From a virus: a stretch of DNA of 57,089 nt. Of the stretch, positions 4,134 to 17,088 are shown piece after piece. Within the stretch, counting starts at the first letter, position 1, and every line of letters starts with the position of its first letter. Below the pieces are notes generated by a model that saw nothing but the letters and a program-made list of their open reading frames with translations, did not search any database and was not told where the DNA came from. Position numbers and translations under genes: made by a program. Location: the IMG/VR virus record IMGVR_UViG_3300025867_000001; one strand, given 5' to 3'.

Positions 4134-4163
4134 TTCTCATTATAGTCTATGTTTTTTTCGCGA
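4134..4163 (-). promoter_or_regulatory. Promoter-like motif (phage consensus).
   Basis: Minus strand reads TCGCGAAAAAAACATAGACTATAATGAGAAC. TATAAT at 4144-4139 overlaps the stop of the upstream gene. Confidence 0.5.
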
Positions 4164-4334
4164 TTCTTCGACTATGCTATCACATAGAATATATACGATA
4201 AACACCATCGGATACCAAAATAGTATATTCGTCAGGAGCACTAGTGTATCCCATTCTGCCACCAAATAGATTGTACCGCAATAACAGCCTATCAAGACAA
4301 TTAATGCTAACGCACGAATGGCGCACTTTTTCAT
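4140..4334 (-). CDS. Small membrane protein (64 aa).
   Basis: ATG 4334 follows AAAAGGAGAA. The longer track ORF (to 4370) would run into a terminator hairpin. Two hydrophobic segments. Confidence 0.6.
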   Translation of the reverse strand: MKKCAIRALALIVLIGCYCGTIYLVAEWDTLVLLTNILFWYPMVFIVYILCDSIVEESRKKHRL

Positions 4335-4366
4335 AATAATTCTCCTTTTAATTAGCAATCGCGTAA

Positions 4367-4390
4367 GCAAAAAGGGATCGAATGATCCCT
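4367..4390 (-). terminator. Rho-independent terminator.
   Basis: Minus strand: AGGGATC-ATTC-GATCCCT followed by TTTTGC. Confidence 0.65.
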
Positions 4391-4401
4391 GTGAATTTGT
4401 A

Positions 4402-4479
4402 TTACTTTTTCGAATTATCTTGCTTGACGTATCTTACGATCAAGTATATAATTGCTAAAGCGATTACTAATTCAAGCAT
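4402..4479 (-). CDS. Possible 25-aa hydrophobic peptide, translationally coupled to the upstream gene.
   Basis: Its ATG overlaps the upstream stop (GATGCTTGA). Product: MLELVIALAIIYLIVRYVKQDNSKK. It is very short, so this is tentative. Confidence 0.3.
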   Translation of the reverse strand: MLELVIALAIIYLIVRYVKQDNSKK

Positions 4480-4663
4480 CTTTCTTACCCTCTTTCTTGA
4501 GTTCAACACTCACACTCTTTGTTGATTTATTTCTCTGTAGTTCCTCTACCAGGCCATCAAGCGTAAGGCATATTCCGATGGCTATCGCGACTCCAAATAT
4601 CGAGCCGAAATAACCTCCTATTAATACTGCCAACGCCATTATCCCGAAGCTAAACTTCTTCAT
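4472..4663 (-). CDS. Small membrane protein (63 aa).
   Basis: RBS TAGGAG. TM segment: FSFGIMALAVLIGGYFGSIFGVAIAIGICL. Confidence 0.65.
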   Translation of the reverse strand: MKKFSFGIMALAVLIGGYFGSIFGVAIAIGICLTLDGLVEELQRNKSTKSVSVELKKEGKKDA

Positions 4664-4692
4664 AATAACATCTCCTAAATATAATTAAGTAT

Positions 4693-4722
4693 CTCTCATT
4701 ATAGAGGATGTTATTTTTGCGA
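4693..4722 (-). promoter_or_regulatory. Promoter-like motif (phage consensus).
   Basis: Minus strand: TCGCAAAAATAACATCCTCTATAATGAGAGA, directly after the terminator at 4723-4744. Confidence 0.55.
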
Positions 4723-4744
4723 GAAAAGGAGAGCCGAAGCTCTC
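4723..4744 (-). terminator. Rho-independent terminator.
   Basis: Minus strand: GAGAGC-TTCG-GCTCTC followed by CTTTTCT. Confidence 0.65.
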
Positions 4745-4747
4745 TAG

Positions 4748-4894
4748 TCATTTAAGAAGTTCTCGTATAATCTTGTACGTAATGTATATGATTCCTCCTA
4801 TCCATAATATCCCGACTAATGCCGGAATTATTGTAGCTACGAGCAAATATAACAATACTGCCAAGACGACGAAACTTAAAATCGTCATGAGCAT
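4748..4894 (-). CDS. Small membrane peptide (48 aa), below the ORF-track cutoff.
   Basis: AAAAGGAG lies 7 nt upstream of ATG 4894. Product: MLMTILSFVVLAVLLYLLVATIIPALVGILWIGGIIYITYKIIRELLK. Confidence 0.5.
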   Translation of the reverse strand: MLMTILSFVVLAVLLYLLVATIIPALVGILWIGGIIYITYKIIRELLK

Positions 4895-4898
4895 TTTC

Positions 4899-5081
4899 TT
4901 ACTCCTTTTTTCTTACCTTGGCTTTGAGTTCCTCGACCTTAGATTTCGCTTTTACACAAATTGTGTCTCTTAGCTCAGGATTATTGGCTATAATTGTTGC
5001 CGTGCCTATTATGACGGGCCCCAATATGCCAGTAATCCAGAGTCTAATTTCACGACTTGCTTCAATTTGCTTATAAGTCAC
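4899..5081 (-). CDS. Small membrane protein (60 aa, GTG start).
   Basis: GGAGGTG RBS. TM segment: LWITGILGPVIIGTATIIA. Confidence 0.6.
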   Translation of the reverse strand: MTYKQIEASREIRLWITGILGPVIIGTATIIANNPELRDTICVKAKSKVEELKAKVRKKE

Positions 5082-5102
5082 GAGTTTTCACCTCCAATAT
5101 AA

Positions 5103-5132
5103 TTCTCATTATAGGCTAAGATATAAATGAAA
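5103..5132 (-). promoter_or_regulatory. Promoter-like motif, a weaker upstream match.
   Basis: Minus strand: TTTTTCATTTATATCTTAGCCTATAATGAGAAT, directly after a hairpin terminator. Confidence 0.45.
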
Positions 5133-5146
5133 AAGGCCAGAGGCCT
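5131..5146 (-). terminator. Short hairpin plus T-tract terminator.
   Basis: Minus strand: AGGCC-TCT-GGCCT followed by TTTTC, just after stop codon 5155-5157. Confidence 0.5.
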
Positions 5147-5154
5147 AGGTTTCC

Positions 5155-5418
5155 CTAGACCTCTATTCCCATTAACCATAATCCGTTCATTGTTGCCCAA
5201 TATTTTTCATAAACATCTTGCCTTAAATCTTGGTCTGTCGGAAATTCTTCGTACATGACAATTGCCAGCGCAAGACTTTTCACTTGATATAATTTTGTTA
5301 CGATTCTTTCATCGAATACGCCATACCTTTCAAGTTGTTAAGTCTTTAGCTTATGTAGTTGTTCCTGTATGTCAGTGACATCCGTTTCGCAGATTCTTAC
5401 AAATAAGTTCTTTTCCAT
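5155..5418 (-). pseudogene. 87-codon reading frame interrupted by one in-frame TAA (5340-5338). It could be a nonsense-disrupted gene, a readthrough candidate, or only a 26-aa peptide.
   Basis: ATG 5418 has a GGAGGC RBS. Reading: MEKNLFVRICETDVTDIQEQLHKLKT-TAA-QLERYGVFDERIVTKLYQVKSLALAIVMYEEFPTDQDLRQDVYEKYWATMNGLWLMGIEV-TAG. The second part has no SD or start of its own. Confidence 0.45.
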
Positions 5419-5445
5419 TTTATTAGCCTCCAATATAATGATTAT

Positions 5446-5476
5446 TTCTCATTATAGGGTAAGATTTTACTGCTAA
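5446..5476 (-). promoter_or_regulatory. Promoter-like motif, a weaker upstream match.
   Basis: Minus strand: TTAGCAGTAAAATCTTACCCTATAATGAGAAA. Confidence 0.45.
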
Positions 5477-5934
5477 AATATCACGACGTACTGATTCGGC
5501 GAGGCAAGAAATACACCCAGATGCTTGTTATAAACTTTGGGCATATTCGGAATATAACGACCAAACTTGACGAGAATTTGCCCACGATATCTTTGAGCTG
5601 CTTGGATGAAGCTGTCGCTTGTGATACTAATATCATACCCGGTATATATGATTATTGGAGTATCCTGCCCCCGAGCAACTCCTGCATCAATAAAGCTTAC
5701 AACTTCGTCCATATTGCAGAAAGGCTCTAATCCTCCCATAACAATTGCGCTTGTTATGGCGTTTTTCTCATACCTTCCCCAAATTTCTTCATCCGGGAAA
5801 TTTTTGGTTTCCAATTCGGCAAGATGTGTATTCTGACAGCCTTTGCATTTCCAAGTACATTCGGGAACGACCAGAAGCATTGATGCCTGTTTGTAATCGC
5901 CAAAACTTTCGTCAATTATTTGTTTTAGATGCAT
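5473..5934 (-). CDS. nrdG: Anaerobic ribonucleotide reductase activating protein (radical SAM).
   Basis: CxxxCxxC cluster in VVPECTWKCKGCQN, small size (153 aa), and position just downstream of nrdD. Confidence 0.8.
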   Translation of the reverse strand: MHLKQIIDESFGDYKQASMLLVVPECTWKCKGCQNTHLAELETKNFPDEEIWGRYEKNAITSAIVMGGLEPFCNMDEVVSFIDAGVARGQDTPIIIYTGYDISITSDSFIQAAQRYRGQILVKFGRYIPNMPKVYNKHLGVFLASPNQYVVIF

Positions 5935-6325
5935 TCGAGACCTCCTTGGCCTCCTTGGCGTTCAAGAAATCTAATGCTCCACGATAGTTATAGAGCATCC
6001 CGGAAGGGGTCATTAGAACCGGTAATTCCACGACGCCGTCCGGATACTCTGTTGACTCGACGTAATTTTTTTCCATTCGGTCGAGTTCTTTTTTCAAGAT
6101 GTTGCAGCGAGGACAGCCCTCGCGCGTAAATATAATATAGTCCGCTGGAATCTTTGTATATAATCCACAAGTACAATCGCCCATAAACTGATCCCGGAAT
6201 TCTTGACAAGGGCATTTAGTAGTCACATCATGGTTAGGCTTGCATAAGCAAAAACCTCCGTTTTTATGCATGACTTCTTCAAGAACCTCGGCTCCAGGTA
6301 ATTTTTTGATTATACTAGTTTCCAT
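5912..6325 (-). CDS. Fusion of a Cys-rich domain (ferredoxin-thioredoxin-reductase-like) with a glutaredoxin/NrdH-like domain.
   Basis: N-terminal part: CLCKPNHDVTTKCPCQEFRDQFMGDCTCGLY. C-terminal part has a thioredoxin-fold CPRC motif (IIFTREGCPRCNILKKEL). Confidence 0.55.
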   Translation of the reverse strand: METSIIKKLPGAEVLEEVMHKNGGFCLCKPNHDVTTKCPCQEFRDQFMGDCTCGLYTKIPADYIIFTREGCPRCNILKKELDRMEKNYVESTEYPDGVVELPVLMTPSGMLYNYRGALDFLNAKEAKEVSNASKTNN

Positions 6326-6337
6326 TTATAAACTCCT

Positions 6338-8272
6338 TTAAACTGTTTTATTTTCGATCCACTTACGAGTCTTGTATTCTTCTTTTCGACTCGGTATCCA
6401 GTTCTTCACAAGGGTTATGAACCCTACAGGCCGAGTAGCTTCACCGGCCTTTGGCTTTCCGCAAAGCGGGCAAGTGTCTCCGTAGAAGCCGTGCTCATCC
6501 TCACAGACGTCAATCCGGGTATTGAATGCCTCGTAAATGACACCCATTTCCGCGGTTTTGTTTAAAACGTTCCAAGCCTGCTCCGAGTTTGTAAACGGAG
6601 CATCGATATTAATATGTAGAATTGATCCCCCTCCGCACAGTTTATCGAGAACGGCAGCGTATTCGGCTCTGTCGCTAATAGACCGATACTCGCTCAAGGG
6701 AATCCATTGATTGCTATAGCAATCGAGTAATTGCACATCTTTGCCAAAGGTTAGCTTGTCCTTCTGAGCAAGTTTGACGCAAGCGGACTCACCAGGAATC
6801 TGCTCGACGTTAATAGAGTAATCTTTGTCTTCCGCAAATTTTTGTGTGGTCTTGGTGATAAGCTCGAGGACCATTTTCTCGAACTTCAAAATATCATCAG
6901 ACTCTGTAAGCCCCATAATTCGGGCGCAGTCATATAGGCCTATAAATCCCACGGTGTTGAACTGCCTCTCAATCGTCGCCAACTCGAGATCGTAAATCTT
7001 TAAAGCTTTACGGTCAATCAAGTCCTGGATTACAGCCCGAACACAATGTAAATATTGGCAGGTTTTAAGCGTCATTTCGGCAATAGAATCAAGTAAACAA
7101 TTTTTAATTTTAAACCAGCTGTCGGCCTTGAGCGTAAATATAAAACTATTGAATGCCTTATAAGCCAGATGGGGGAGATTCATTGTGATGACACCGACGC
7201 TTCCAATATTGAGGTCGGATCCGCCTATGAAATTGGTAAAGCCATGCAATTTTTCCTGTTTGGCGTTCATTTCGTCAACATTATTAAGAACCCTGCAGCA
7301 TGTACTCAGGGTTGAAATATCATCGCCGCAGTACAAGTTGGAATTCGACCATTGCATATTGAGGTCGCTGAATTCTTTTCCTGTTTTGCCATTGACAAAT
7401 TCGGATTTTTCCCTATCGTAGAGCAGGCAGTCAGTGTTCACCGGGAAGGTCATAACTTTATGACACAGAATATCATTTACACATTTGAGGAATTCTTTCT
7501 CAAAGTCGACTATTTCAGAAATATGCTTGATAACCGGTTCTCCGTTCGGGAATAGCCTGTCCCCGAAGAAGTGCTCAAGATATGATTCGTCCATACATGA
7601 CGTATTAGTGAAGGCCGCTTCGTTCATCCGCATCTCGGAGCCATTCAGTTTATAGACAAGCATTTGAATTTGCTGCTTGAGGTATCTGGCCGGGTCGGAA
7701 ATATAATTTTCGCGCTTGTCCTTGTCCCAGAAGTACCACATGTAGGGAAATAAAGCCGGCATTCCAACGGCTCCAGTTGTCTCGCGGCAGGTCACTGCAA
7801 CAAACTCAATGACGTGCTGAATGAAGCTGTCAAGATGCTGAGCCGGCCTGTCGGAAATATCAGTGAAGAACGCCCCATGCTCTGCCAATTTGTCAAAGTC
7901 ATAGGCGAAGCAGTAGGGTTTTGTCGAAATATTCACAGAGTTGTGGACATAAATCGAGCCTATAATTTCACGAGAAAGAAAGAATGTGGCTTCCTCGTGC
8001 CCGTAAATATCATAGATTTTATTAAAAAGAATCCGATAGTTTTCGGTCTTTTCGTACATGTTGTTGAACTCTTTTAGGAGAATGCCCATGTACCGGTCAC
8101 GGGTATTCGCATTGCCGTCATCGGTTTTATCCGCAATCTTCAGATGGACAGGCTTATAAGCATAGCTCTCTCCATCAAATATAATTTCACATAAACCGGA
8201 TTTGGCATAATGTTCGGGATACTTCTTTTGAATACGCTTTAATGCCTGATAAAATACCTTGTCATTTGTCAT
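6338..8272 (-). CDS. nrdD: Anaerobic (class III) ribonucleoside-triphosphate reductase.
   Basis: 644 aa with a C-terminal Zn site and glycyl-radical region (CEDEHGFYGDTCPLCGKPKAGEATRPVGFITLV), and the adjacent nrdG. Confidence 0.85.
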   Translation of the reverse strand: MTNDKVFYQALKRIQKKYPEHYAKSGLCEIIFDGESYAYKPVHLKIADKTDDGNANTRDRYMGILLKEFNNMYEKTENYRILFNKIYDIYGHEEATFFLSREIIGSIYVHNSVNISTKPYCFAYDFDKLAEHGAFFTDISDRPAQHLDSFIQHVIEFVAVTCRETTGAVGMPALFPYMWYFWDKDKRENYISDPARYLKQQIQMLVYKLNGSEMRMNEAAFTNTSCMDESYLEHFFGDRLFPNGEPVIKHISEIVDFEKEFLKCVNDILCHKVMTFPVNTDCLLYDREKSEFVNGKTGKEFSDLNMQWSNSNLYCGDDISTLSTCCRVLNNVDEMNAKQEKLHGFTNFIGGSDLNIGSVGVITMNLPHLAYKAFNSFIFTLKADSWFKIKNCLLDSIAEMTLKTCQYLHCVRAVIQDLIDRKALKIYDLELATIERQFNTVGFIGLYDCARIMGLTESDDILKFEKMVLELITKTTQKFAEDKDYSINVEQIPGESACVKLAQKDKLTFGKDVQLLDCYSNQWIPLSEYRSISDRAEYAAVLDKLCGGGSILHINIDAPFTNSEQAWNVLNKTAEMGVIYEAFNTRIDVCEDEHGFYGDTCPLCGKPKAGEATRPVGFITLVKNWIPSRKEEYKTRKWIENKTV

Positions 8273-8483
8273 TATTCTGGGCTCCTTTGAAATATAAATT
8301 TATTACCAGCTGAGCATCATCTCTGATTTCTGTGTCAATCTGGATTTCCCATGGATACAAGTTGTGCATATTGCAATACTCTCTCATCGCTTTGACGAGC
8401 GTATCGTAATAATGATTAATCACTTCCTCCAGTGTTACTGGATTTTCCTCCATCGTCACTTGATCCAAACCCTCCTTCCCCAC
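8262..8483 (-). CDS. Hypothetical small protein; start uncertain.
   Basis: 73-aa ORF overlapping the dUTPase 3' end. GTG near 8459 (10 nt after GGAGGG) is a plausible alternative start. Confidence 0.45.
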   Translation of the reverse strand: MGKEGLDQVTMEENPVTLEEVINHYYDTLVKAMREYCNMHNLYPWEIQIDTEIRDDAQLVINLYFKGAQNNDK

Positions 8484-8886
8484 GTTCTGTTACGCTTAGA
8501 TCGGTGTCTATCACCTCGATCTTCTCGAACCGGTAAGGCTGTACAATCAATTGGGCCAGTGCAGTCCGAAGACCCCACTGGCCGTTGATGCGGATTACAT
8601 CAGAGAATATATTCTTAATTGGTAACATAATTTCTCCGCGATATGAGCTATCGATTATGCCCACATTATTTGCGAGAGTTAAGCCTTTCTTGTGTAAGGA
8701 GCTTCTCGGGTAAATTGCTCCAAAATGATTCCTTGGAATTTCCACATGTATGCCAGTAGGTAGCAGATATGTCTCTCCTGGCTGGAGCTCGTATTCATAG
8801 GCGGTGTCGACATATAAGTCCAACCCCGCCGACCCATTATCCGCATATTTAGGAGTTACGGCTGTCGGACTTTTTGTTATTCTCAC
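8416..8886 (-). CDS. dut: dUTP diphosphatase (trimeric dUTPase).
   Basis: Motifs seen: NGSAGLDLY, PRSS, GIIDSSYRGEI and the C-terminal ERGEGGFGSS. GTG start after GGAAGGAG. Confidence 0.9.
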   Translation of the reverse strand: MRITKSPTAVTPKYADNGSAGLDLYVDTAYEYELQPGETYLLPTGIHVEIPRNHFGAIYPRSSLHKKGLTLANNVGIIDSSYRGEIMLPIKNIFSDVIRINGQWGLRTALAQLIVQPYRFEKIEVIDTDLSVTERGEGGFGSSDDGGKSSNTGGSD

Positions 8887-8995
8887 CGAAATACTCCTTC
8901 CATTTTTTCATCTCTTTGCGTCGTTCATCGCGGTTTAATCCCTGTTTTTTCAGGTGATCCTTAAGTATCGCTTTCTGTTGTTCAGATATTTTCAT
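8852..8995 (-). CDS. Possible 47-aa basic peptide.
   Basis: GGAGGT lies 8 nt upstream of ATG 8995. Product: MKISEQQKAILKDHLKKQGLNRDERRKEMKKWKEYFGENNKKSDSRNS. It overlaps the dut start out of frame, so it is tentative. Confidence 0.3.
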
Positions 8996-9230
8996 CTTCT
9001 ATACCTCCACATTCCGGGCATTCTTTCAAATAGGCCGCCACTATGGTCCCACAGGACTGGCAAATATAAACGTCATCGCGCATATTGGTGTACGTGGCAA
9101 TAATTTGTTCATCTGACATATGCTGGATTTTCTTCTTCCAAGATATTTCCTCCTTCCAAGATGGACTCTCAGATTGGTGCAATAACCATAGGCGCATCTG
9201 CGAAACCTTCCTTGAAAAATTTATGCTCAT
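8982..9230 (-). CDS. Zinc-ribbon small protein.
   Basis: CQSCG...CPECGG pair in an 82-aa ORF. Confidence 0.6.
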   Translation of the reverse strand: MSINFSRKVSQMRLWLLHQSESPSWKEEISWKKKIQHMSDEQIIATYTNMRDDVYICQSCGTIVAAYLKECPECGGIEDENI

Positions 9231-9242
9231 AATGCCTCCTCA

Positions 9243-9881
9243 TTACAACGATTTGACGGAAGGGAATCGGATCACGTACCCATTACGTATGCGGTCCGTA
9301 TAGGCCGAACGCAGATTAGACCACCCAAATCCATCGTCAACATAACTGGATGGAACTCCGCTAAGGTCATAGAAGTTCATGACCGAAGCTTGGCCATACT
9401 CAATCGTCAGGTCGACAAGAGAGCTCAGGACCGCCTCAGCCTCGCTACGGCTGTCGAAGACAATATCATCAAAGTCATGCTGGACCTTTGCATTTCTGTT
9501 CGGCTCAGCTTTGTCGTTTGCAGAGCTTTGATAATATTTGTCATAGCTGGAGAATGTCCGGTTTCTCGGAGGACTCGACCCACGGCGTCTCTCGCCGAAT
9601 AAAAACATGTCCGTTCCTCCACCGATCATTTCGCTGAGCATATTTTTTACTGTCGGAACCAGAATATCATACAACAAATATTCGGATACCGACTTGGTCG
9701 TGTCTCCCAGAAAGGCTTCCTTGAACTTTTGACCCACGGATTTTTTCTGCTTTGACACTTTACCTTTAACCACCGGGGCGAGCTTTTTCCTTTCCTTGGA
9801 TTCCTGAGGCTTTACTGACTTAGCATTGGATGGGATCATGTTGTCCAGACTCGAACGGGTAAGCTTTGATTCTTCGGGCAT
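9243..9881 (-). CDS. Hypothetical protein.
   Basis: 212-aa ORF with a GGAGG RBS, a basic N-terminal part and a conserved-looking C-terminal domain (DFDDIVFDSRSEAEAVLSSL...GFGWSNL). No family recognised. Confidence 0.7.
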   Translation of the reverse strand: MPEESKLTRSSLDNMIPSNAKSVKPQESKERKKLAPVVKGKVSKQKKSVGQKFKEAFLGDTTKSVSEYLLYDILVPTVKNMLSEMIGGGTDMFLFGERRRGSSPPRNRTFSSYDKYYQSSANDKAEPNRNAKVQHDFDDIVFDSRSEAEAVLSSLVDLTIEYGQASVMNFYDLSGVPSSYVDDGFGWSNLRSAYTDRIRNGYVIRFPSVKSL

Positions 9882-9895
9882 TTATATGTCCTCCT

Positions 9896-10111
9896 TTATC
9901 GATGTCGACGGGAAAAATCAGTGAAATAGAATTGGCAGAACAGAGCATTGATTACCTTGATTGGTAAATCTTTATTTGCTGAATTGATACTCAGACTCAG
10001 TTCATCGCTAGTAGCCTTTATCCTGAGGAAGTCCTCCTTGTAGGCGCATACACTAAAATGATCGCAACTGTCACAACAGCATACGGGCTTCCTATCCTGC
10101 ATCTCAGCCAT
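9896..10111 (-). CDS. Cys-rich small protein, tandem paralog of 10104..10433.
   Basis: CCCDSCDHFSVCAYKEDFLRIK aligns with CNKCSHFGVCTYKDDFLKLR in the neighbouring gene. Confidence 0.6.
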   Translation of the reverse strand: MAEMQDRKPVCCCDSCDHFSVCAYKEDFLRIKATSDELSLSINSANKDLPIKVINALFCQFYFTDFSRRHR

Positions 10112-10433
10112 CTATTTGCCCCTCCTTATCGCGAAATAGAATATCAGTGGAATAGAATTTACAGACCAAATTAATTGGCTTAATAAATGGAATATCCCGG
10201 ACACATATCTTCTTGACTGTGGAATCTTTATTCGCCACATCGATCACCAGTTCGTCAATAGTTGTCCGTAACTTAAGAAAGTCGTCCTTATAAGTGCATA
10301 CGCCGAAATGGCTACACTTATTACAGAAGGTTCTGTTATCCATATTATCCTCCCCACCAGCAAATATAACATGCATTTCAGCAGTCTTCGGAATCTGTCG
10401 ACTCCAGCTCCAACTTTCAGATGTCATTTCCAT
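10104..10433 (-). CDS. Cys-rich small protein, tandem paralog of 9896..10111.
   Basis: Same CxxCxHFxVCxYK(D/E)DFL core. Its start overlaps the upstream stop. Confidence 0.6.
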   Translation of the reverse strand: MEMTSESWSWSRQIPKTAEMHVIFAGGEDNMDNRTFCNKCSHFGVCTYKDDFLKLRTTIDELVIDVANKDSTVKKICVRDIPFIKPINLVCKFYSTDILFRDKEGQIDG

Positions 10434-11122: not shown

Positions 11123-11271
11123 TCTTTCTCTCCTTTTTAAAATATAAATGAGAAGAATACAATGCTGTTTTCTATCTTCAGAGTCTTACTCGCGTTTCCG
11201 CTGATAGATCCCATGCTACTTAAATCTGAATGCATTATTGATCATCACATTGTACCGGTCAGAGCCGTTTC

Positions 11272-11304
11272 TTCTCATTATAGACGAAGTTAAATCTGCG
11301 CGAA
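11272..11304 (-). promoter_or_regulatory. Promoter-like motif (phage consensus) preceding a ~150-nt leader.
   Basis: Minus strand: TTCGCGCAGATTTAACTTCGTCTATAATGAGAAG. It overlaps the ligase 3' end. Confidence 0.5.
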
Positions 11305-12177
11305 TTGTTTGAATATGGGTAAATTAAGCGAAATTCCACCATTTCTATTCTTTGAATATGAAAAAGCATCAATCTCAATTTCTTTTCCAATTGGGGAATT
11401 TACTGTCATCTCGAGTCTCTCGGCGTCGGTGAATCCGCTACCGACTCGAACCGGGACGGTGCATTTGGGAACTTCGCAAATGACCGCAGCGACCATACCA
11501 TCAATCTTCGTCCCAGGCCGAGCCATCTCAATATCAATAATCTTTCCAGTGAATTCTTTCATCTGCTTTACTTTGAGAAGAGCCTTACTACGTCCTGCAA
11601 TGTATGGAGAATCCATATCCATTAGCATAAGGCCTTCGCCATTCTTCTTGATGACAGAATCCATAGTTTGTTTTAGGGTTTTGGTGTCTGCTCCCCAAAT
11701 ATTTCCGAAGATAGGTACTCGGATAATGGGGTCGGCCTTTGTTGCTGAATTGAACAGAGAATATAATTCAGCATCTCGAACCTGACCCCGTCTGGTATCT
11801 CCTCCGAGCTTAAAGATGTCAAAACAAACAGCCATGAGGTCAAGCTTATTGTCGGAATATTGCTGGCTTGCTTTTGCGCTGGTGTTTTGACGAAGGACAA
11901 AGCTGGGAACATTTTTGAAATATAACTCTCTATCCACGAGCTCGCAGTCGTAGACAGTTTCGGTGGGGAACCAAGGAGCGTCTAGGAATCCTGTAATGTG
12001 CCCAAGCCATTTGTCTTCATGCCCGGTTCGGCTCCATGCAGTTACGGATCCGTCAAGTGATTTGCAGAATAGCCGTCTAACGCCATCTATCTTTTCAGAC
12101 ATGCGCCACAATTTACCATCTAAGACAGAGTCCGGGTAATTTATGAGGTTTTCACCCAACATTGGCGTAATCTGCAT
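11290..12177 (-). CDS. ATP-dependent DNA ligase.
   Basis: Adenylation motif I KxDG (SEKIDGVR), EGLMLMD (motif IV-like) and LLKVK (motif V-like). Confidence 0.8.
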   Translation of the reverse strand: MQITPMLGENLINYPDSVLDGKLWRMSEKIDGVRRLFCKSLDGSVTAWSRTGHEDKWLGHITGFLDAPWFPTETVYDCELVDRELYFKNVPSFVLRQNTSAKASQQYSDNKLDLMAVCFDIFKLGGDTRRGQVRDAELYSLFNSATKADPIIRVPIFGNIWGADTKTLKQTMDSVIKKNGEGLMLMDMDSPYIAGRSKALLKVKQMKEFTGKIIDIEMARPGTKIDGMVAAVICEVPKCTVPVRVGSGFTDAERLEMTVNSPIGKEIEIDAFSYSKNRNGGISLNLPIFKQFAQI

Positions 12178-12214
12178 GGAAATTCCCTCCTTTTATCAAT
12201 TTTTTGAATGAACT

Positions 12215-12709
12215 TTAATCTTTGGACATAGATTTAGCGATTGAACTATAAATTTTCTGAATGTTGTTGAGATTATCGTTAAATTCCTCTAAGAGGCCGT
12301 TTAACTTACTGTCAAATTTCTCAGCAACCGCCGTCTTTGCTTGGCTTATCACTTCGCGTTCCATATCAGAAGTATTAACTCTTTTTACCTGATTTGCAAT
12401 CTCTGCAGCCACTGATTTCTTAATATCGTCCGAAATATCATTCACAGAGTTCTTTACTTGGTATTTAATTTCCGAATATGCTTCGTCGCCAATTCGGTTT
12501 GAAATGTATTTGACCTCGCGATTAATTGCTCGCTGAGTGGCCTGCTCTAACAGGTCATCACTAATAGATATGTCCATATCTTCAGATAATTTATCAACAG
12601 CCACATCCAACATAGATGATAGTTTACAAATTCGAAAATGAAGATAAGATACATACCCAATTGCGCCTGCTATAGCGGTGCCAATTAATATTTTCGTACT
12701 ATTGGTCAT
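12215..12709 (-). CDS. Membrane-anchored coiled-coil protein.
   Basis: N-terminal TM segment (ILIGTAIAGAIGYVSYLHF) followed by a charged helical region. Confidence 0.65.
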   Translation of the reverse strand: MTNSTKILIGTAIAGAIGYVSYLHFRICKLSSMLDVAVDKLSEDMDISISDDLLEQATQRAINREVKYISNRIGDEAYSEIKYQVKNSVNDISDDIKKSVAAEIANQVKRVNTSDMEREVISQAKTAVAEKFDSKLNGLLEEFNDNLNNIQKIYSSIAKSMSKD

Positions 12710-13050
12710 ATTATTCTCCTTTTATCTTCTATAAGCTGCGTATCCGCCCAAGCAATAACTTTGCAATGTAGTGCTTCCTCTAACAGTCCAAATTCAATGT
12801 CACGTAACCACCATTTGCCATCCCTCAATTCAGCAATATAAGGGATCCCGTCCTTAATAAAATCAGTCTTAACTAATACCCAATCATATTGTCCTTTTGG
12901 AGGAAGCCCGACTTCAGAAATATAATTCCATTTACACTTTTTCCTATTTGCGATTTTTACTCCTTTCTCGTACTCGTAAGCGATCTGGTAGAAGGCATAG
13001 ATATTCATTACTAGGATAAGTATGAATGCTATCAGGAATAACCACTCCAT
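12706..13050 (-). CDS. Membrane-anchored hypothetical protein, possibly with a DUF551-like C-terminal domain.
   Basis: N-terminal TM segment (WLFLIAFILILVMNIYAFY). The C-terminal GLPPKGQYDWVLVK...AELRDGKWW pattern gives weak family recognition. Confidence 0.6.
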   Translation of the reverse strand: MEWLFLIAFILILVMNIYAFYQIAYEYEKGVKIANRKKCKWNYISEVGLPPKGQYDWVLVKTDFIKDGIPYIAELRDGKWWLRDIEFGLLEEALHCKVIAWADTQLIEDKRRII

Positions 13051-13081
13051 AAGTATAACTCCTTTTAAAATATAAACGAAA

Positions 13082-13157
13082 GGGCATGGCTAGTGGCTTC
13101 GAACCACGTCTCCGATTGCTCGGCGAGTTACCATTACTCCATGCATTTAGCATGCCC
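13082..13157 (-). ncRNA. 76-nt tRNA-like cloverleaf RNA candidate without an anticodon loop; not a canonical tRNA.
   Basis: Minus strand: GGGCATGCTA...TAGCCATGCCC closing stem (7+3 bp); D-like hairpin GAGT-AATGGTA-ACTC; CCGA-GCAA-TCGG (GNRA tetraloop) where the anticodon arm should be; T-like hairpin GTGG-TTCGAAG-CCAC. The 5' G lies 5 nt after TATAAT. Confidence 0.35.
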
Positions 13158-13186
13158 TTTCATTATACGGTATGTTATTTGTGCGG
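13158..13186 (-). promoter_or_regulatory. Promoter-like motif (phage consensus).
   Basis: Minus strand: CCGCACAAATAACATACCGTATAATGAAAGG, with TATAAT at 13167-13162. Confidence 0.5.
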
Positions 13187-13187
13187 A

Positions 13188-13349
13188 TTAGAATTTGTAG
13201 ACAATGACCACCCAACCCTTGATGAATCGGCCACCTTCGCCCCGGGCCTGCTTAAGGGTGAAATGGGTTCCGTCCTTAAGCCTATGTATCTTAGCCAGGG
13301 CCTGTTTCTTGGTTTCAAATGCAAATTCTTTAAATTCCGGTATTTTCAT
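13188..13349 (-). CDS. Small hypothetical protein (53 aa), below the ORF-track cutoff.
   Basis: AAGGAGAA lies 5 nt upstream of ATG 13349. Product: MKIPEFKEFAFETKKQALAKIHRLKDGTHFTLKQARGEGGRFIKGWVVIVYKF. Confidence 0.5.
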   Translation of the reverse strand: MKIPEFKEFAFETKKQALAKIHRLKDGTHFTLKQARGEGGRFIKGWVVIVYKF

Positions 13350-13373
13350 TATAATTCTCCTTAAAATATAAAT

Positions 13374-13398
13374 AAAAGGGCCAATGTTTGACCCTTTT
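13374..13398 (-). terminator. Hairpin terminator.
   Basis: AAAAGGG / CCCTTTT stem with an 11-nt loop. On the minus strand it is followed by ATTTATATTTT. Confidence 0.5.
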
Positions 13399-13406
13399 GC
13401 TTGTAG

Positions 13407-13661
13407 TTATTCTACTTCGGTTTTCTTCGGAAAAAGTCCTTTGATTTGATCGCTGGCCTCTGTCCACTGGTCGTCGACATAGTCGGTAACCTTATCCGCC
13501 GCCATGGCCGATACCGCCAATCCTCCGACCCCGCAAGCAATCTTTTTGATCACTCCGAGGTTTTGAGGTTTGACTAATCCAACCGCGTTGCCGGCTAAGA
13601 TTCCAACTCCTATCGAGACCAATAGCTCGAGGCCGCCTTTCAATAATTCTAACTTTTTCAT
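13407..13661 (-). CDS. Small membrane protein (84 aa).
   Basis: Two Gly/Ala-rich hydrophobic segments, with RBS AAAGGAGAC. Confidence 0.65.
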   Translation of the reverse strand: MKKLELLKGGLELLVSIGVGILAGNAVGLVKPQNLGVIKKIACGVGGLAVSAMAADKVTDYVDDQWTEASDQIKGLFPKKTEVE

Positions 13662-13683
13662 TTTAGTCTCCTTTCAAATATAA

Positions 13684-13710
13684 CTCATTATAGGGCAAGT
13701 TATTGGTGAG
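13684..13710 (-). promoter_or_regulatory. Promoter-like motif, partial upstream match.
   Basis: Minus strand: CTCACCAATAACTTGCCCTATAATGAGTTA. Confidence 0.45.
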
Positions 13711-13933
13711 AGGCCATAATATCAACGGCCTTTATCTTGCCCGGTATGTATTTTGGAAGGTAGACGTAATAGGAATCGCCGTAATGAACGAGTTGCTCAG
13801 GGTTTTTCACTCCGTACTCTTTCATACAGTTCAGAGCATCACCCAACTCGGTGAATTTAAGGACATTCCACTCTTTCATCTCTATGGGGCCCATGGTAAG
13901 GCCTCCTGAGCCCCCATACCCGTCGTTACTCAT
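13700..13933 (-). CDS. Hypothetical small protein.
   Basis: 77-aa ORF whose start overlaps the stop of the upstream holin-like gene. Confidence 0.55.
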   Translation of the reverse strand: MSNDGYGGSGGLTMGPIEMKEWNVLKFTELGDALNCMKEYGVKNPEQLVHYGDSYYVYLPKYIPGKIKAVDIMASHQ

Positions 13934-14354
13934 TACTCTGCTCCGTAGCAGCCGGCTGCTGAATTAGCGCTTGTACGTCCTTATTAGTTTCCCAAAGAGC
14001 TTTAGCCTCAATTAGTGCTGTTTCAATAATATTATCAAGGTTACTTTCATCAATATACTTCTTAAATTCGGCAGGAATACGAGCATATAATTCGTCCATA
14101 ACAGCTGAACGCTTAAGCGCTCCTGTACCGCCGCCATATATAACCTCCGCATTTGTCACAAGGCTTAAGGCTATAGGCATAAGGTTCTCCAAAAGTCGCT
14201 TGGAATATGCGATTTTTTCCTCGGGCGTCATCTCCTTCAGTGTCACCCAGATATGTTTTATCCAGTTGACAAGTCCGACGATGCCGGAAATTACCGCAAT
14301 TAAGACAATTAGAATACTATCCCAATTGTCTAAGATAAACTGTAAAGCTTTCAT
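13926..14354 (-). CDS. Holin-like protein (LL-H / superfamily-6-like pattern).
   Basis: Single N-terminal TM segment (ILIVLIAVISGIVGLVNWI) followed by a soluble helical domain with GGGTGALKRSAVMDEL...IETALIEAK. Confidence 0.5.
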   Translation of the reverse strand: MKALQFILDNWDSILIVLIAVISGIVGLVNWIKHIWVTLKEMTPEEKIAYSKRLLENLMPIALSLVTNAEVIYGGGTGALKRSAVMDELYARIPAEFKKYIDESNLDNIIETALIEAKALWETNKDVQALIQQPAATEQSNE

Positions 14355-14357
14355 TAA

Positions 14358-14672
14358 TTAACCTCCCATATTAGCTAATGTCGAAATATCAATAGGTTCT
14401 TTACATGTATTGTATGTATTACCATACTGAATCTTCAATAAATTTTCACTCTTGGCTTTCCACGAATAGAATCCAATGGCCGTTGCCGTTGGTGTTCCAA
14501 TATACGTGGCCAATGCTATAAACATTCCACTATCGACAGCATTCCCGAGGTGAATATCATTAACGGCCGATACTATTACAAGAGCCACTCCCAGCAAGGC
14601 GCCTAATATGTAAAGCACCATTACGCAAGCGAGGATCATCTTGCTGAATGTCAACTTTTGCTCCGTTACCAC
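14358..14672 (-). CDS. Holin-like multi-TM protein (GTG start).
   Basis: Three hydrophobic segments and a charged tail, FYSWKAKSENLLK, which is typical of Firmicutes phage holins. Confidence 0.5.
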   Translation of the reverse strand: MVTEQKLTFSKMILACVMVLYILGALLGVALVIVSAVNDIHLGNAVDSGMFIALATYIGTPTATAIGFYSWKAKSENLLKIQYGNTYNTCKEPIDISTLANMGG

Positions 14673-14752
14673 ATAATAAAGCCCCTTTCATCCAAATATA
14701 AATAGACATAATTGCTACGTCATATGCATCACCAATCCTTTATTTGAATGAT

Positions 14753-14926
14753 TTAGAGCTTATGCGGATCTTTGTCCAGGCAGATTTGCAGGTTATCGGC
14801 CTTGATTGTGATTGTGATCTTCTCACCAGAATCCTGCGGAATATCAATGGTGGTTTCGAACTTATTTATTTTTCCGCATAGACCCGCATTTAAGAGAATA
14901 TTGGACACAATTTCGGTGAGCTTCAT
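14753..14926 (-). CDS. Small hypothetical protein (57 aa), below the ORF-track cutoff.
   Basis: AAAAGGAGAC lies 4 nt upstream of ATG 14926. Product: MKLTEIVSNILLNAGLCGKINKFETTIDIPQDSGEKITITIKADNLQICLDKDPHKL. Confidence 0.5.
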   Translation of the reverse strand: MKLTEIVSNILLNAGLCGKINKFETTIDIPQDSGEKITITIKADNLQICLDKDPHKL

Positions 14927-14946
14927 ATAGTCTCCTTTTAAAATAT

Positions 14947-14973
14947 AAAAGAGAGACCTTTTACGATCTCTCT
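14947..14973 (-). terminator. Rho-independent terminator.
   Basis: Minus strand: AGAGAGA-TCGTAAAAGG-TCTCTCT followed by TTTATATTTT. Confidence 0.6.
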
Positions 14974-14991
14974 TGTTCTCAGGTTGATTGA

Positions 14992-15276
14992 TTAAACTCG
15001 ACCTCTCAGGACGAATCCTAACGCTTTGGATGTTATGATGTCCAGCTTTTCGTGTTTCAGAATCAGTACGATACCCAGCAGATTCCCGGCGACAACTAAT
15101 ATCGTATCAGGACTTATGCTCCATGTTGGTTTCAACATTTCCGTATAAGCCTGATGACGCTTATTAAGCTCTCTCCATTCCTCATCCGAAATATCAGGAC
15201 GACTCATCCTCTCAAATACTGCATCACACTCCTCTTTAATTTTGGTTTTCGTGCTCTTATTAAATCTAAAGTTCAT
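14992..15276 (-). CDS. Small protein with a C-terminal TM segment.
   Basis: The track start 15294 lies inside the TATAATG box. ATG 15276 follows GGGAG. TM segment: ILVVAGNLLGIVLIL. Confidence 0.6.
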   Translation of the reverse strand: MNFRFNKSTKTKIKEECDAVFERMSRPDISDEEWRELNKRHQAYTEMLKPTWSISPDTILVVAGNLLGIVLILKHEKLDIITSKALGFVLRGRV

Positions 15277-15289
15277 CCTATCAACTCCC

Positions 15290-15318
15290 TTCATTATAGA
15301 GCAAGTATTATCTCCGAG
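15290..15318 (-). promoter_or_regulatory. Promoter-like motif, partial upstream match.
   Basis: Minus strand: CGGAGATAATACTTGCTCTATAATGAAGGG. Confidence 0.45.
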
Positions 15319-16039
15319 GATACACTTTTGAGGATATCACTAAGACTGGCGTACCATGCTCGTCCAATTGGCTCGAATAATCAAGCTCAATTAAGCCTCG
15401 GTCAATGTCCCATCCCATCTCATCTCCAAGAACTGTATTCGGGAGATCGAGGGCATAATATAAATCATTGAGACTGAGCCACATCTCCGAGAGAAGATCC
15501 CTATTAAGCTCGTTGACACTTTGCCGAATCTTTTCAATGTCCGATTTGAAATACCGTCCTGTCAAGGCATCAAGGCATAAGACATCTCCCTTTCCTGTAA
15601 ATATAACTTCGTGGTTTCCGACTGGATTAGCCAAAACCTTGTCCTTAGCAACTTCATCTCGTATTTGCCGATCCTTAGTCTTGCCAATTGTCTCAACGAC
15701 CTTGCCTTGGTACTCCCTGAAGGCTGCTTCGCTCAGAGAATATAAAGCGGCTAAGGCCGCATTGCGCTTGGTACTTATTGTATTAGCGCCTATAATACAG
15801 GCAATTGATGTAACGCCAACGATTCCTGCGGGAATATAACACTTCCATGTGAGCTTAATCTTCCCCAAGCCATTTAACTCTTCGCTATCCTCCAAAAGTT
15901 GGATGGCCCTAGGAGTGGCCTTTACCGCTAATATAGCTGTGGTGACCACACCAGCGCATCCAAGCCCTGTAAGGATTTGAGGACTGTTTTTAGAAATGAC
16001 ACCCCCGAGATTTTTTGCTATTTGTTTAATTGGAACCAT
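15308..16039 (-). CDS. Membrane-anchored hypothetical protein, paralog of 2637..3638.
   Basis: See 2637..3638. Shared TM segment and RNAALAALYSLSEAAFREYQGKVV core. Confidence 0.75.
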   Translation of the reverse strand: MVPIKQIAKNLGGVISKNSPQILTGLGCAGVVTTAILAVKATPRAIQLLEDSEELNGLGKIKLTWKCYIPAGIVGVTSIACIIGANTISTKRNAALAALYSLSEAAFREYQGKVVETIGKTKDRQIRDEVAKDKVLANPVGNHEVIFTGKGDVLCLDALTGRYFKSDIEKIRQSVNELNRDLLSEMWLSLNDLYYALDLPNTVLGDEMGWDIDRGLIELDYSSQLDEHGTPVLVISSKVYPRR

Positions 16040-16467
16040 TAAGAATTCCTCGATTCTGCATTGGTGGATGCTGCATATGCAGCATGAATCAAATCCTCTA
16101 GTTCTCTTTGTTCGAGGTACTGTTTTCTGAAGAGCTGTATTTTTGGGTCTAACGCAGGCTCGCTTTCTCGAACTATTGCGCTAAGGAGCAGCATATAGTT
16201 GATGGCATCGCCGAGCTTTTCGTTCCATACCGTTAATGGGTTGCTCTTGCCCGCACTTGCGTCTCTGCACATATCGTAAATACTCACAATATGCTTGAGC
16301 ATAAAAGATGCGCAGACTTCCTCCGGGCTTCTCTGACATAGTCCTGCGCCCGCATGAAAATTGTGTAATCTGTCTTCTGTTGCATACTCATCTCCTTTTT
16401 TGATTAGTGTGTCTTTACACCGCTGGATCTGGTCCTCCAAGACTTGATTAAATTCTGTTGCGTTCAT
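16039..16467 (-). CDS. MazG-like / DUF1599-like all-alpha nucleotide pyrophosphohydrolase family protein.
   Basis: ATG 16467 follows AAAGGAGGAG. Pattern: KKGDEYATEDRLHNF...KHIVSIYDM...GDAINYMLLL. Confidence 0.45.
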   Translation of the reverse strand: MNATEFNQVLEDQIQRCKDTLIKKGDEYATEDRLHNFHAGAGLCQRSPEEVCASFMLKHIVSIYDMCRDASAGKSNPLTVWNEKLGDAINYMLLLSAIVRESEPALDPKIQLFRKQYLEQRELEDLIHAAYAASTNAESRNS

Positions 16468-16508
16468 AATGCTCCTCCTTTTAAAATAAAAAGTAATGTT
16501 TTCATTGC

Positions 16509-16538
16509 TTCTCATTATAGTCCATGTTATTGCTGCGA
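16509..16538 (-). promoter_or_regulatory. Promoter-like motif, the best consensus copy.
   Basis: Minus strand: CTCGCAGCAATAACATGGACTATAATGAGAAG. 27 nt (16512-16538) are identical to 16706-16732. Confidence 0.6.
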
Positions 16539-16540
16539 GG

Positions 16541-16566
16541 ATAAAAAGAAACCACTCGGTTTCTTT
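16541..16566 (-). terminator. Rho-independent terminator.
   Basis: AGAAACC-(4 nt)-GGTTTCT hairpin flanked by A/T runs on both sides. Confidence 0.7.
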
Positions 16567-16574
16567 TTAATTCT

Positions 16575-16679
16575 TTATAAAAACATTAATATAGATTGCC
16601 AAATTATCATTCCTAATCCAATGCCCATTATAACACAAAACATGTAATAACACACCCAATCCCAATTAAATTTTTTCAT
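16575..16679 (-). CDS. 34-aa hydrophobic peptide.
   Basis: TAGGAGGA lies 9 nt upstream of ATG 16679. Product: MKKFNWDWVCYYMFCVIMGIGLGMIIWQSILMFL. It has its own promoter motif and terminator. Confidence 0.45.
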   Translation of the reverse strand: MKKFNWDWVCYYMFCVIMGIGLGMIIWQSILMFL

Positions 16680-16704
16680 TATTATTAATCCTCCTAAATA
16701 TCAT

Positions 16705-16732
16705 TTCATTATAGTCCATGTTATTGCTGCGA
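16705..16732 (-). promoter_or_regulatory. Promoter-like motif, the best consensus copy.
   Basis: Minus strand: TTCGCAGCAATAACATGGACTATAATGAAATG. Confidence 0.6.
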
Positions 16733-16756
16733 AAAAAGAATAGGCGCCGAAGCGCC
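16733..16756 (-). terminator. Rho-independent terminator.
   Basis: Minus strand: GGCGC-TTCG-GCGCC followed by TATTCTTTTTT. Confidence 0.65.
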
Positions 16757-16762
16757 AAGTCC

Positions 16763-17002
16763 TTATTCAAATATTACTGAAAAAGTTTCTGTAAACCAAT
16801 TACGAAATCTTTTGCTGCAAGCGCAAGCGATCGTCGCCGGAATAAGTATTACGAGCTTAAGTGGTATCAAAATGATCTCAAGCACTGTGAGGAATATCCA
16901 CCACCAGTGCTCTTGAATTTTTTCAATATGCCACATAAATCCCATAGCCATACCAATTCCAAAGCCAATGCACAGGGCCTTTACCGTTTTGATTATGTTC
17001 AT
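16763..17002 (-). CDS. Small multi-TM membrane protein (79 aa).
   Basis: Hydrophobic segments ALCIGFGIGMAMGFMW and WWIFLTVLEIILIPLKLVILIPATIACA. Confidence 0.65.
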   Translation of the reverse strand: MNIIKTVKALCIGFGIGMAMGFMWHIEKIQEHWWWIFLTVLEIILIPLKLVILIPATIACACSKRFRNWFTETFSVIFE

Positions 17003-17030
17003 GTTTTATCTCCTTTTCAAAATATAAATG

Positions 17031-17060
17031 TTCTCATTATAGGAGATGATAAAAATGCGA
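17031..17060 (-). promoter_or_regulatory. Promoter-like motif (phage consensus).
   Basis: Minus strand: TTCGCATTTTTATCATCTCCTATAATGAGAAC, directly after a terminator. Confidence 0.5.
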
Positions 17061-17088
17061 AAAAAGAGACGCCCTGTTAAGAGCGTCT
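17061..17088 (-). terminator. Rho-independent terminator closing the structural and lysis block.
   Basis: Minus strand: AGACGC-(10 nt)-GCGTCT followed by CTTTTTT. Confidence 0.65.

Follow-up and report, generated by a model that had tools for sequence, protein, structure and literature searches.

The DNA considered here is a 57,089-nucleotide (nt) viral sequence (IMG/VR record IMGVR_UViG_3300025867_000001), which we refer to, at its full length, as the window. Its minus strand carries 13 copies of a motif of about 30 bases, with the consensus T-TCGC(A/G)-N5-(A/T)ACA(T/C)-N3-C-TATAAT-GAGAA, and these mark the start of nearly every non-structural gene unit of the phage. Judged from sequence comparisons, the 13 sites are probably (we estimate a probability of about 0.68) cognate promoters of the phage's own RNA polymerase, a protein of 948 amino acids (aa) with fused helix-turn-helix (HTH) domains, and not of the host sigma-A holoenzyme. 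The directly computed part of the case consists of the motif itself, its strand bias, its conservation across a phage clade, its co-distribution with the polymerase, the predicted fold of that protein and its catalytic motif.

The motif is real and highly non-random. An earlier note on this DNA had listed TATAAT hexamers with characteristic flanks, and all 13 are present on the minus strand with the flanks described (sites are named here by the position of the hexamer's first T). The same note had counted 14 copies, of which 13 are found, and had made the spacing after TCGCA one nucleotide too long: the pattern TCGCA-N6-AAYAT-N4-TATAATGAGAA has no match even at three mismatches, whereas TCGCA-N5-AAYAT-N4-TATAATGAGAA has nine, against 0.01 expected from shuffles. 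The shorter pattern AYNT-N4-TATAATGAR gives 10 matches against 0.13 expected, every one on the minus strand. Weight-matrix scans of both strands, the check that the note had proposed, confirm the enrichment and the strand bias, with all sites on the minus strand. A 41-nt matrix built from the 13 window sites scores these at 28–50 bits, the next best position on either strand reaching 10 bits. A second matrix, built from 367 related sites of the clade, gives 15.6–43 bits for 12 of the window sites and 11.6 for site 513, with a best opposite-strand match of 9.4. Site 513, one of the 13, lacks TCGC and is the weakest copy. One further partial match, CCTATAATGAA at 35805–35810 (minus strand) within the tail assembly chaperone gene, was left uncounted; it has neither the TCGC nor the ACA block, reaches −4.3 bits under the clade matrix and is probably a chance match, possibly the uncounted fourteenth copy of the earlier note.

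Twelve of the 13 sites lie in a 17-kb region of small accessory and nucleotide-metabolism genes, the remaining one being site 50796, and the matrix scan finds none in the structural block (approximately 17.1–46.9 kb), in agreement with the initial description. Scans of the whole window for canonical sigma-70 consensus promoters show nothing above chance on the coding strand. The window thus has no recognisable promoters other than the 13 sites, and there is no separate host-type early promoter from which the polymerase could be expressed. From their sequence context, the sites are almost certainly promoters. They form a dedicated, phage-specific class that serves non-structural genes, as had been suggested; the label 'temporal' given to the class does not hold up, since these are the only recognisable promoters and one of them precedes the polymerase gene itself.

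The anatomy of the signal was derived from 367 unique sites, with positions numbered from the hexamer's first T; the percentages, including the 100% for the cytosine of the ACA block, involve some circularity, as a matrix was used to collect the sites. The upstream block T-C-G-C-(A/G) occupies positions −19 to −15 (88–96% conserved; TCGC 92–96%), the middle block (A/T)-A-C-A-(T/C) positions −9 to −5 (C = 100%), and a C is found at −1 (75%). The hexamer T-A-T-A-(A/G)-T spans 0 to 5 (83–99%) and is followed by G/A, A, G/A, A at 6 to 9 (65–87% for the commoner base). The three blocks are spaced by approximately 10.5 and 10 base pairs (bp), which would place them on the same side of the helix. The hexamers found are TATAAT (64%), TATAGT (15%), TTTAAT (5%, frequent in some genomes), CATAAT (4%) and TATTAT (3.5%), and Faecalibacterium phage FP_oengus has CTTTAT; over the clade, T is found at hexamer position 6 in 97% and A at position 2 in 90%. 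The main variants (TATAAT/TATAGT/TTTAAT, TCGCA/TCGCG) coexist in single genomes, and the window has the TATAAT type only. Three related loci (L070, L073 and L087) have TATAGT- and TATAAT-type copies that are spatially segregated, L073 having nine of the former followed by six of the latter; these may be sub-classes that differ in strength or timing.

Taken alone, the hexamer is a sigma-A-type −10 element (TAnnnT), with TATAAT in 13 of 13 window sites. As the first description had it, there is neither a canonical −35 element at 16–18 nt nor a TG extension (a consensus scan misses all 13 sites, and positions −3 to −2 are not TG), and conservation continues downstream of the hexamer, as GAGAA in the window and as GAGA-type purines across the clade. 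The TCGCA block ends 14 bp from the hexamer. The missing −35 and TG elements, together with flanks as conserved as the hexamer itself across two phyla, fit host sigma-A poorly and argue against it at the sequence level. The same direction is suggested by the A at hexamer position 2, the base that sigma needs most, which is lost in approximately 10% of the sites and in whole lineages that keep the other blocks.

The earlier note had treated the motif as private to this phage; instead, it recurs in hundreds of related phages and is common to a very large clade, defined by homologues of the 948-aa protein, that spans Actinobacteria and Firmicutes. A megablast search with 20 kb of the window against phage genomes gave no match, and relatives were reached via protein or motif searches only. 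Scanning IMG/VR for AACAT-N3-CTATAATGAGAA retrieved 81 loci, many with dense, one-stranded arrays of the three-block signal (for instance, 18 sites in 6.3 kb in L070 and 15 sites in L073), and 66 loci, counting motif-retrieved loci and two polymerase-anchored ones, encode homologues of window proteins. The motif is likewise present in isolated phages with the polymerase: Arthrobacter phage Mudcat (7 sites), Streptomyces phage Rima (13), Gordonia phage Rickmore (8), Lactococcus phage 1706 (11), FP_oengus (7) and Rhodococcus phage ReqiPepy6 (2 in 8.7 kb), none of them with a site on the non-coding strand. The isolated phages with the motif cover two host phyla and a G+C content of 34%–59%, and their polymerases are 35–47% identical to that of the window.

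An independent test is provided by 81 IMG/VR loci picked by polymerase homology only. Here, 75 sites fall on the polymerase strand and one on the opposite strand, none of them inside or downstream of the polymerase gene. In 47 of the 66 loci with enough upstream sequence, a site lies 0.9–1.0 kb upstream of the polymerase start, equivalent to site 50796 of the window. Counting all loci, three or more sites are present in 56, and each of these keeps them on a single strand. Lactococcus phage sk1, which is without the polymerase, has no motif site and nothing above 5 bits, and uses annotated TTGACA-17-TATAAT promoters; the 9.2 kb of the unrelated phage ReqiPine5 (GU580943) are likewise free of sites, which is a trivial control.

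The 948-aa protein is predicted to be a two-barrel RNA polymerase of the single-chain kind, with a DNA-binding module at either end, because it combines an invariant GADFDGD motif with a QDE-1-like modelled fold and two terminal HTH domains. Pfam identifies an N-terminal HTH at residues 75–105 (HTH_23, 1.2e-10; Sigma70_r4_2, 8e-7) and a C-terminal HTH resembling sigma region 4 at residues 923–947 (Sigma70_r4, 7e-5), and matches no polymerase domain. The DxDGD catalytic loop is present as GADFDGD (residues 551–557), and D553, F554, D555, G556 and D557 do not vary across 23 homologues with 56–77% identity to the protein; phrog_4291 matches it at 1068 bits. The AlphaFold model is of medium confidence (pLDDT 74). 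Foldseek ranks QDE-1 first for it (E 2.8e-7 to 1.3e-6, probability 1.0), ahead of RDR2 and beta-prime subunits, at low TM-scores (0.26–0.29), and a sequence search of the PDB gave no match. A T7-type (Pol I-like) polymerase domain is found neither in this protein nor in the other large proteins scanned. Homologues are encoded in 250 deposited phage genomes, mostly of phages infecting Arthrobacter (95), Gordonia (55), Streptomyces (54) and Lactococcus (13), with further ones from Curtobacterium, Microbacterium, Rhodococcus, Faecalibacterium and Bifidobacterium, and in metagenomes they make up at least 8000 protein clusters at 90% identity. The same two-barrel prediction has been made for homologues of the protein by Koert et al. 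(bioRxiv 10.1101/842583), who describe the polymerase gene as a signature of a phage supercluster whose hosts are Actinobacteria and Firmicutes, and do not discuss promoters.

The non-structural set kept clade-wide comprises the DNA polymerase, a single-stranded DNA-binding (SSB)-like protein, a helicase, two nucleases, the RNA polymerase, an 89-aa open reading frame (ORF), two DUF6353 proteins and phrog_4079. Within this set, a recognisable HTH or sigma domain occurs in the polymerase alone. Sigma, AsiA-like or MotA-like proteins were not recognised among the clade-conserved proteins with Pfam and PHROGs, a scan that took in a minority of the small early ORFs. We infer that the polymerase reads the motif because it is the sole recognisable DNA-binding protein among the non-structural ones kept clade-wide, and because its two HTH domains match the two upstream blocks in number. 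The initial suggestion had been either the phage RNA polymerase or host RNA polymerase with a phage factor; the evidence favours the former, and the latter is still a live rival.

In the mechanism that we propose, the two HTH modules at the ends of the polymerase would bind the two upstream blocks, TCGC(A/G) and (A/T)ACA(T/C), and the two-barrel catalytic core would melt the AT-rich hexamer. RNA synthesis would begin at the purine 3′ of the hexamer, placing the hexamer at approximately −6 to −1 and TCGC at approximately −25 to −22. The resulting units would be short, consisting of a promoter, a Shine-Dalgarno sequence, one or more genes and a hairpin with a U-run, with the terminator often adjoining the next promoter. 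No strong terminator was found between promoter 50796 and the structural block, and the transcript from this promoter may therefore continue across the cos region into the structural genes.

Since the polymerase gene is itself preceded by a promoter of this type, the first polymerase molecules would have to come from elsewhere, and they probably arrive with the virion. Such delivery, as in N4, for gp66 of the crAss-like phage phi14:2 and for gp96 of Thermus phage P23-45, is suggested by the phage 1706 homologue, orf75, which is labelled 'structural protein' in the original GenBank record EU081845 (an unconfirmed depositor's annotation, later renamed in RefSeq); the ReqiPepy6 label echoes the 1706 annotation. 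The position of the gene, the last before the cos region and the structural genes and with no strong terminator in between, fits late synthesis for packaging. A fuller version of the proposal, which we hold tentatively and at a little under even odds, is that of a self-sufficient, sigma-independent, virion-carried polymerase whose built-in HTH domains read a tripartite, double-stranded promoter with the start at the following purine and which transcribes essentially all non-structural genes. If true, a very large siphophage clade would be transcriptionally independent of its hosts, which could explain its reach across Actinobacteria and Firmicutes with genomes whose G+C content is far below that of the hosts.

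Where transcription starts bears directly on who reads the motif. A start 6–8 nt past TATAAT had been expected, which is probably wrong, as in many sites the Shine-Dalgarno sequence or a leader helix sets in with the first base past the hexamer. The median distance from hexamer to start codon is 29 nt, and at approximately 19 unique sites the Shine-Dalgarno sequence begins 0–5 nt past the hexamer and the start codon follows 12–20 nt past it (for example, CTATAAT-GGAGG-TAAATAT-ATG). A start 7 nt downstream would therefore remove these close Shine-Dalgarno sequences from the mRNA. Window site 15298 reads TATAAT-GAAGGGAG-TTGATAGG-ATG, and most promoters of 1706 read TATAGT-AGAAAGAAGGT-N9-ATG, with an extended lactococcal Shine-Dalgarno sequence from the first nucleotide past the hexamer; in the sk1 control, the Shine-Dalgarno sequence never starts less than 7 nt past the −10 element. 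All four long leaders of the window have a predicted closing helix whose 5′ arm starts at the first G past the hexamer. In 107 unique long leaders of the clade, folded together with the preceding 25 nt, positions +1 to +10 were paired with a distant partner in 61–68%, against 20–35% for upstream positions. The Shine-Dalgarno positions and the leader folds lead us to infer a start at the conserved purine directly 3′ of the hexamer.

Some of the leaders are structured in their own right. That of promoter 13167 (13051–13161, minus strand) folds into a tRNA-like cloverleaf with an 11-bp acceptor-like stem from the first G past the hexamer, a D-like arm, a T arm with GGUUCGAAGCC and a 4-nt 'anticodon' loop, followed by a U-rich tail. 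The 101-nt leader between promoter 50796 and the VRR-NUC gene (50690–50790, minus strand) has a T-arm-like hairpin, CCGGGUUCGAUUCCCGG, and a long closing helix from the first G past the hexamer, then a U-rich stretch (minimum free energy −28.3, z −2.1). ARAGORN and Rfam gave no match on the window, the 13051–13161 cloverleaf included, and the structured leaders are therefore not recognised RNAs. Promoters of some relatives drive true-looking tRNA genes (for instance, in L035 near 3657). Right after promoter 513, there is a hairpin with a U-run (459–507, minus strand) that sets in with the proposed first base of the transcript and could serve to attenuate transcription into the genes leading to the DNA polymerase.

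Terminators bear on whether the motif is a promoter at all. A hairpin with a T-run directly abuts sites 17041, 16713, 16519, 5113 and 4703, as had been reported for the window, and 26% of the sites across the clade adjoin such a structure, compared with 3% of random positions. It is very improbable that the motif is instead an RNA-level signal, such as a processing site, or a repeat mediating recombination of gene cassettes. Such a role would agree with its place on the sense strand upstream of Shine-Dalgarno sequences and with its flanking of small, variable accessory genes, whose modules repeats of this kind could help to exchange. However, for the quarter of sites that directly follow a hairpin and T-run, upstream transcripts should end before the motif is reached, and the leader helices begin past the hexamer and exclude it. 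Spaced blocks before an AT-rich hexamer, and a start codon at a fixed, short distance from it, are promoter architecture, and neither Rfam nor the tRNA search returned a match.

Several points weigh against the phage polymerase as the reader. The window sites (13 of 13) and 64% of the clade sites have a perfect sigma-A −10 element, and actinobacterial host polymerases can use −10-only promoters. The conservation percentages carry the partial circularity mentioned above. The arguments from Shine-Dalgarno sequences and leader helices hang on predicted start codons and folds, and GAGAA, being rich in purines, would be apt to pair with U-rich tracts close by in any case. A polymerase gene behind the same type of promoter requires virion delivery or some read-out by the host, and the 'structural protein' label of orf75 could reflect a co-purifying DNA-binding protein. 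Lastly, an extended tripartite phage motif in the crAss-like phage phi14:2 is read by the host sigma-70 polymerase.

Taken together, the alternatives are unlikely. The one with the most to be said for it, rather improbable by itself, is that the sites are host sigma-A promoters built on the perfect −10 element, with TCGC and ACA as sites for a phage factor that replaces the −35 contact or switches the promoter off; the factor might possibly be the HTH domains of the 948-aa protein, with the polymerase reading something else or having another role. The invariant TATAAT of the window and the clade-wide preference for T at hexamer position 6 and A at position 2 are what such promoters should display, a block at approximately −30 with a good −10 resembles T4 middle promoters, the phi14:2 motif is a precedent, and the announcement of Gordonia phage Vardy took the motif for a sigma-70 −10. 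Yet the flanks, the spacing and the downstream GAGA are kept between phages of Actinobacteria and Firmicutes, and some lineages have TTTAAT or CTTTAT hexamers and retain the other blocks. Shine-Dalgarno sequences 0–5 nt past the hexamer would fall outside a mRNA started by sigma-A, as the sk1 control illustrates. The scan of clade-conserved proteins recognised no sigma factor and nothing resembling AsiA or MotA, and no separate host-type promoter is available to express a factor first.

A dual specificity, in which the host polymerase weakly uses TATAAT at the outset of infection, sufficiently for the phage polymerase to be made, and the latter then takes over via the flanking blocks, would solve the bootstrapping problem without virion delivery. 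It would suit the copy that most relatives have ahead of the polymerase operon and a hexamer that is near the sigma-A consensus in most lineages. We give it a slim chance, as FP_oengus promoters are without a sigma-type −10 element, including the copy at the polymerase operon (CCCTTTTATGG), as there is no −35 or TG element to aid host recognition in Firmicutes, and as the 1706 homologue carries its (unconfirmed) structural-protein label.

Dedicated promoters for single-chain phage polymerases have been described in Thermus phage P23-45, where the two-barrel gp96 (virion RNA polymerase) and gp64 (non-virion RNA polymerase) each have their own promoter motif. The likeness to the window is considerable: a single-polypeptide two-barrel polymerase, a dedicated repeated motif before early genes, and a motif shared by the relatives that share the polymerase. 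The 948-aa polymerase, in contrast, belongs to another lineage, is not fused to the tape measure protein and has an HTH at both ends, and its candidate promoter is tripartite with a sigma-like TATAAT.

YonO of Bacillus prophage SPbeta and gp66 of phi14:2 are, like the window protein, single chains with a DxDGD loop and two double-psi beta-barrels, and all are distant relatives of QDE-1 (Koert et al., bioRxiv 10.1101/842583). In phi14:2, gp66 is packaged in the virion and transcribes early genes, whose transcripts have no common motif, and YonO transcribes one late operon from a promoter that is undefined. The window differs from both in its sharp consensus at 13 sites and in its HTH domains in cis, which are unreported for YonO and gp66.

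Further parallels come from better-known systems. In T7 promoters, an AT-rich element directly precedes the start, and the transcript opens with the purine-rich sequence GGGAGA. As in T7-type phages, one phage promoter of approximately 25–30 bp precedes many genes here and is followed by initial purines (GAGA), but the polymerase fold is QDE-1-like and not Pol I-like, and the promoter consists of three separated blocks where that of T7 is one contiguous element. T4 middle promoters combine a MotA box at −30 with a sigma-70 −10, and are read by host polymerase remodelled by AsiA and MotA. They share with the window an excellent −10-like hexamer, the lack of a −35 and a phage-specific block approximately 12–14 bp upstream; they differ in that no AsiA or MotA was recognised here among the proteins scanned, in that the start proposed here adjoins the hexamer and in that the motif is kept across phyla together with a phage polymerase. 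Delivery of a phage RNA polymerase with the virion is known from N4 (virion RNA polymerase, vRNAP).

What is already known are phage polymerases with their own promoters, the predicted polymerase (Koert et al.) and the motif of Vardy. The announcement of Vardy (a clade member of cluster DJ, to which Rickmore belongs as well) described five intergenic copies of a 50-bp motif with TATAAT in a mid-genome region of small genes. Its authors took the hexamer for a sigma-70 −10 and considered that the motif might have a regulatory role, with no tie to a polymerase or to other clusters or phyla. By sequence, it is almost certainly the same element as that of the window. Our literature search found no study that joins the motif to the polymerase or defines it across the clade.

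Little is understood of the way in which YonO, crAss gp66 and similar polymerases, the minimal single-chain relatives of the cellular enzymes, recognise promoters. The window polymerase offers a member of this superfamily with a sharp, easily synthesised 30-bp candidate promoter and with DNA-binding domains in cis. Hundreds of cultured phage–host pairs are available for its study, among them Lactococcus phage 1706 and the SEA-PHAGES isolates of Arthrobacter, Gordonia and Streptomyces, and promoter recognition by minimal two-barrel polymerases thus becomes directly testable in culturable systems. If the proposal is true, it would provide a compact promoter–polymerase pair orthogonal to host transcription in Gram-positive bacteria, explain the odd base composition and cross-phylum spread of the clade, and turn proteins annotated as "HTH DNA-binding protein" or "RNA-dependent RNA polymerase" in more than 250 deposited genomes and thousands of metagenomic contigs into DNA-dependent transcriptases.

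Table 1. Candidate promoter copies and associated features of the window; bit scores refer to the clade matrix.
Feature	Coordinates	Strand	Remarks
Candidate promoter copy TCGCAGAAAAAACATGGCCTATAATGAGAA	50786..50815	-	Ahead of the VRR-NUC endonuclease/exonuclease/RNA polymerase operon; 43 bits, clade matrix
Predicted 948-aa two-barrel RNA polymerase, proposed motif reader	46975..49821	-	HTH at both ends, GADFDGD, QDE-1-like predicted fold
89-aa ORF, phrog_4303	46667..46936	-	Directly 3′ of the polymerase gene; kept in 5/5 isolated relatives compared
Intrinsic-terminator-like hairpin and T-run, end of structural block	17067..17088	-	T-run continues into the TCGC block
Candidate promoter copy, first past the structural block	17031..17060	-	Adjoins terminator hairpin 17067-17088
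Candidate promoter copy	16703..16732	-	Adjoins terminator hairpin 16743-16756
Candidate promoter copy, perfect consensus	16509..16538	-	Adjoins hairpin 16542-16569
Candidate promoter copy	15288..15317	-	Shine-Dalgarno GGGAG 3-4 nt past the hexamer; ATG 16 nt past the hexamer
Candidate promoter copy, TCTCA variant	13682..13711	-	Clade matrix
Candidate promoter copy	13157..13186	-	Followed by 111-nt tRNA-like leader
Candidate promoter copy	11272..11301	-	Followed by structured leader of ~150 nt
Candidate promoter copy, TAGCA variant	5446..5475	-	Clade matrix
Candidate promoter copy, weak upstream block	5103..5132	-	Adjoins terminator hairpin 5138-5165
Candidate promoter copy	4693..4722	-	Adjoins terminator hairpin 4729-4744
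Candidate promoter copy, TCGCG variant	4134..4163	-	Clade matrix
Weakest candidate copy, no TCGC	503..532	-	11.6 bits; upstream of genes leading, around the window ends, to the DNA polymerase

All genes of the window are on the minus strand. In the direction of transcription, a DNA primase-polymerase (52584–56507), the SSB-like protein and the helicase come first, followed by promoter 50796, the VRR-NUC endonuclease, the exonuclease, the 948-aa polymerase, the 89-aa ORF and a GC-rich gap of 191 nt. Beyond the gap are an HNH gene, the terminase and the structural genes down to approximately 17.1 kb, and then the 17-kb accessory and nucleotide-metabolism region. At the window ends (1–458 and 56863–57089, minus strand), an ORF runs off position 1; the homologue of this ORF in relatives precedes a counterpart of the ORF at 56863–57060, after which comes the DNA polymerase. 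The window therefore looks, from this gene order, like a circularly permuted or closed assembly of a genome of approximately 57 kb. The 89-aa ORF could be an accessory protein or factor of the polymerase.

The 191-nt gap (46476–46666, minus strand) is non-coding and contains G-runs, with blocks such as CCTAAAAA-TCTCCGGGGG-TGATATTT kept in three relatives (L083, L089 and L090). It is probably a cos or packaging region; members of the clade have 3′ cohesive ends according to published genome announcements. A distinct late promoter was sought in the gap, which has conserved GC-rich blocks and nothing motif-like. Within the structural block, the sole strong terminator-like hairpin (11 pairs and a T-run; 36145–36169, minus strand) lies just past the major tail protein gene, and may act in attenuation, adjusting how much head and tail-tube protein is made relative to the later tail proteins.

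Two DUF6353 paralogues (phrog_2152; 2637–3638 and 15308–16039, minus strand) are kept clade-wide, in phages of both phyla. The promoter-rich region also encodes an anaerobic ribonucleotide reductase, NrdD (6338–8272, minus strand; Pfam E 9e-72). Together with the AAGGAGG-type ribosome-binding sites and the 42% G+C of the window, NrdD points to an anaerobic or facultative, Firmicutes-like host.

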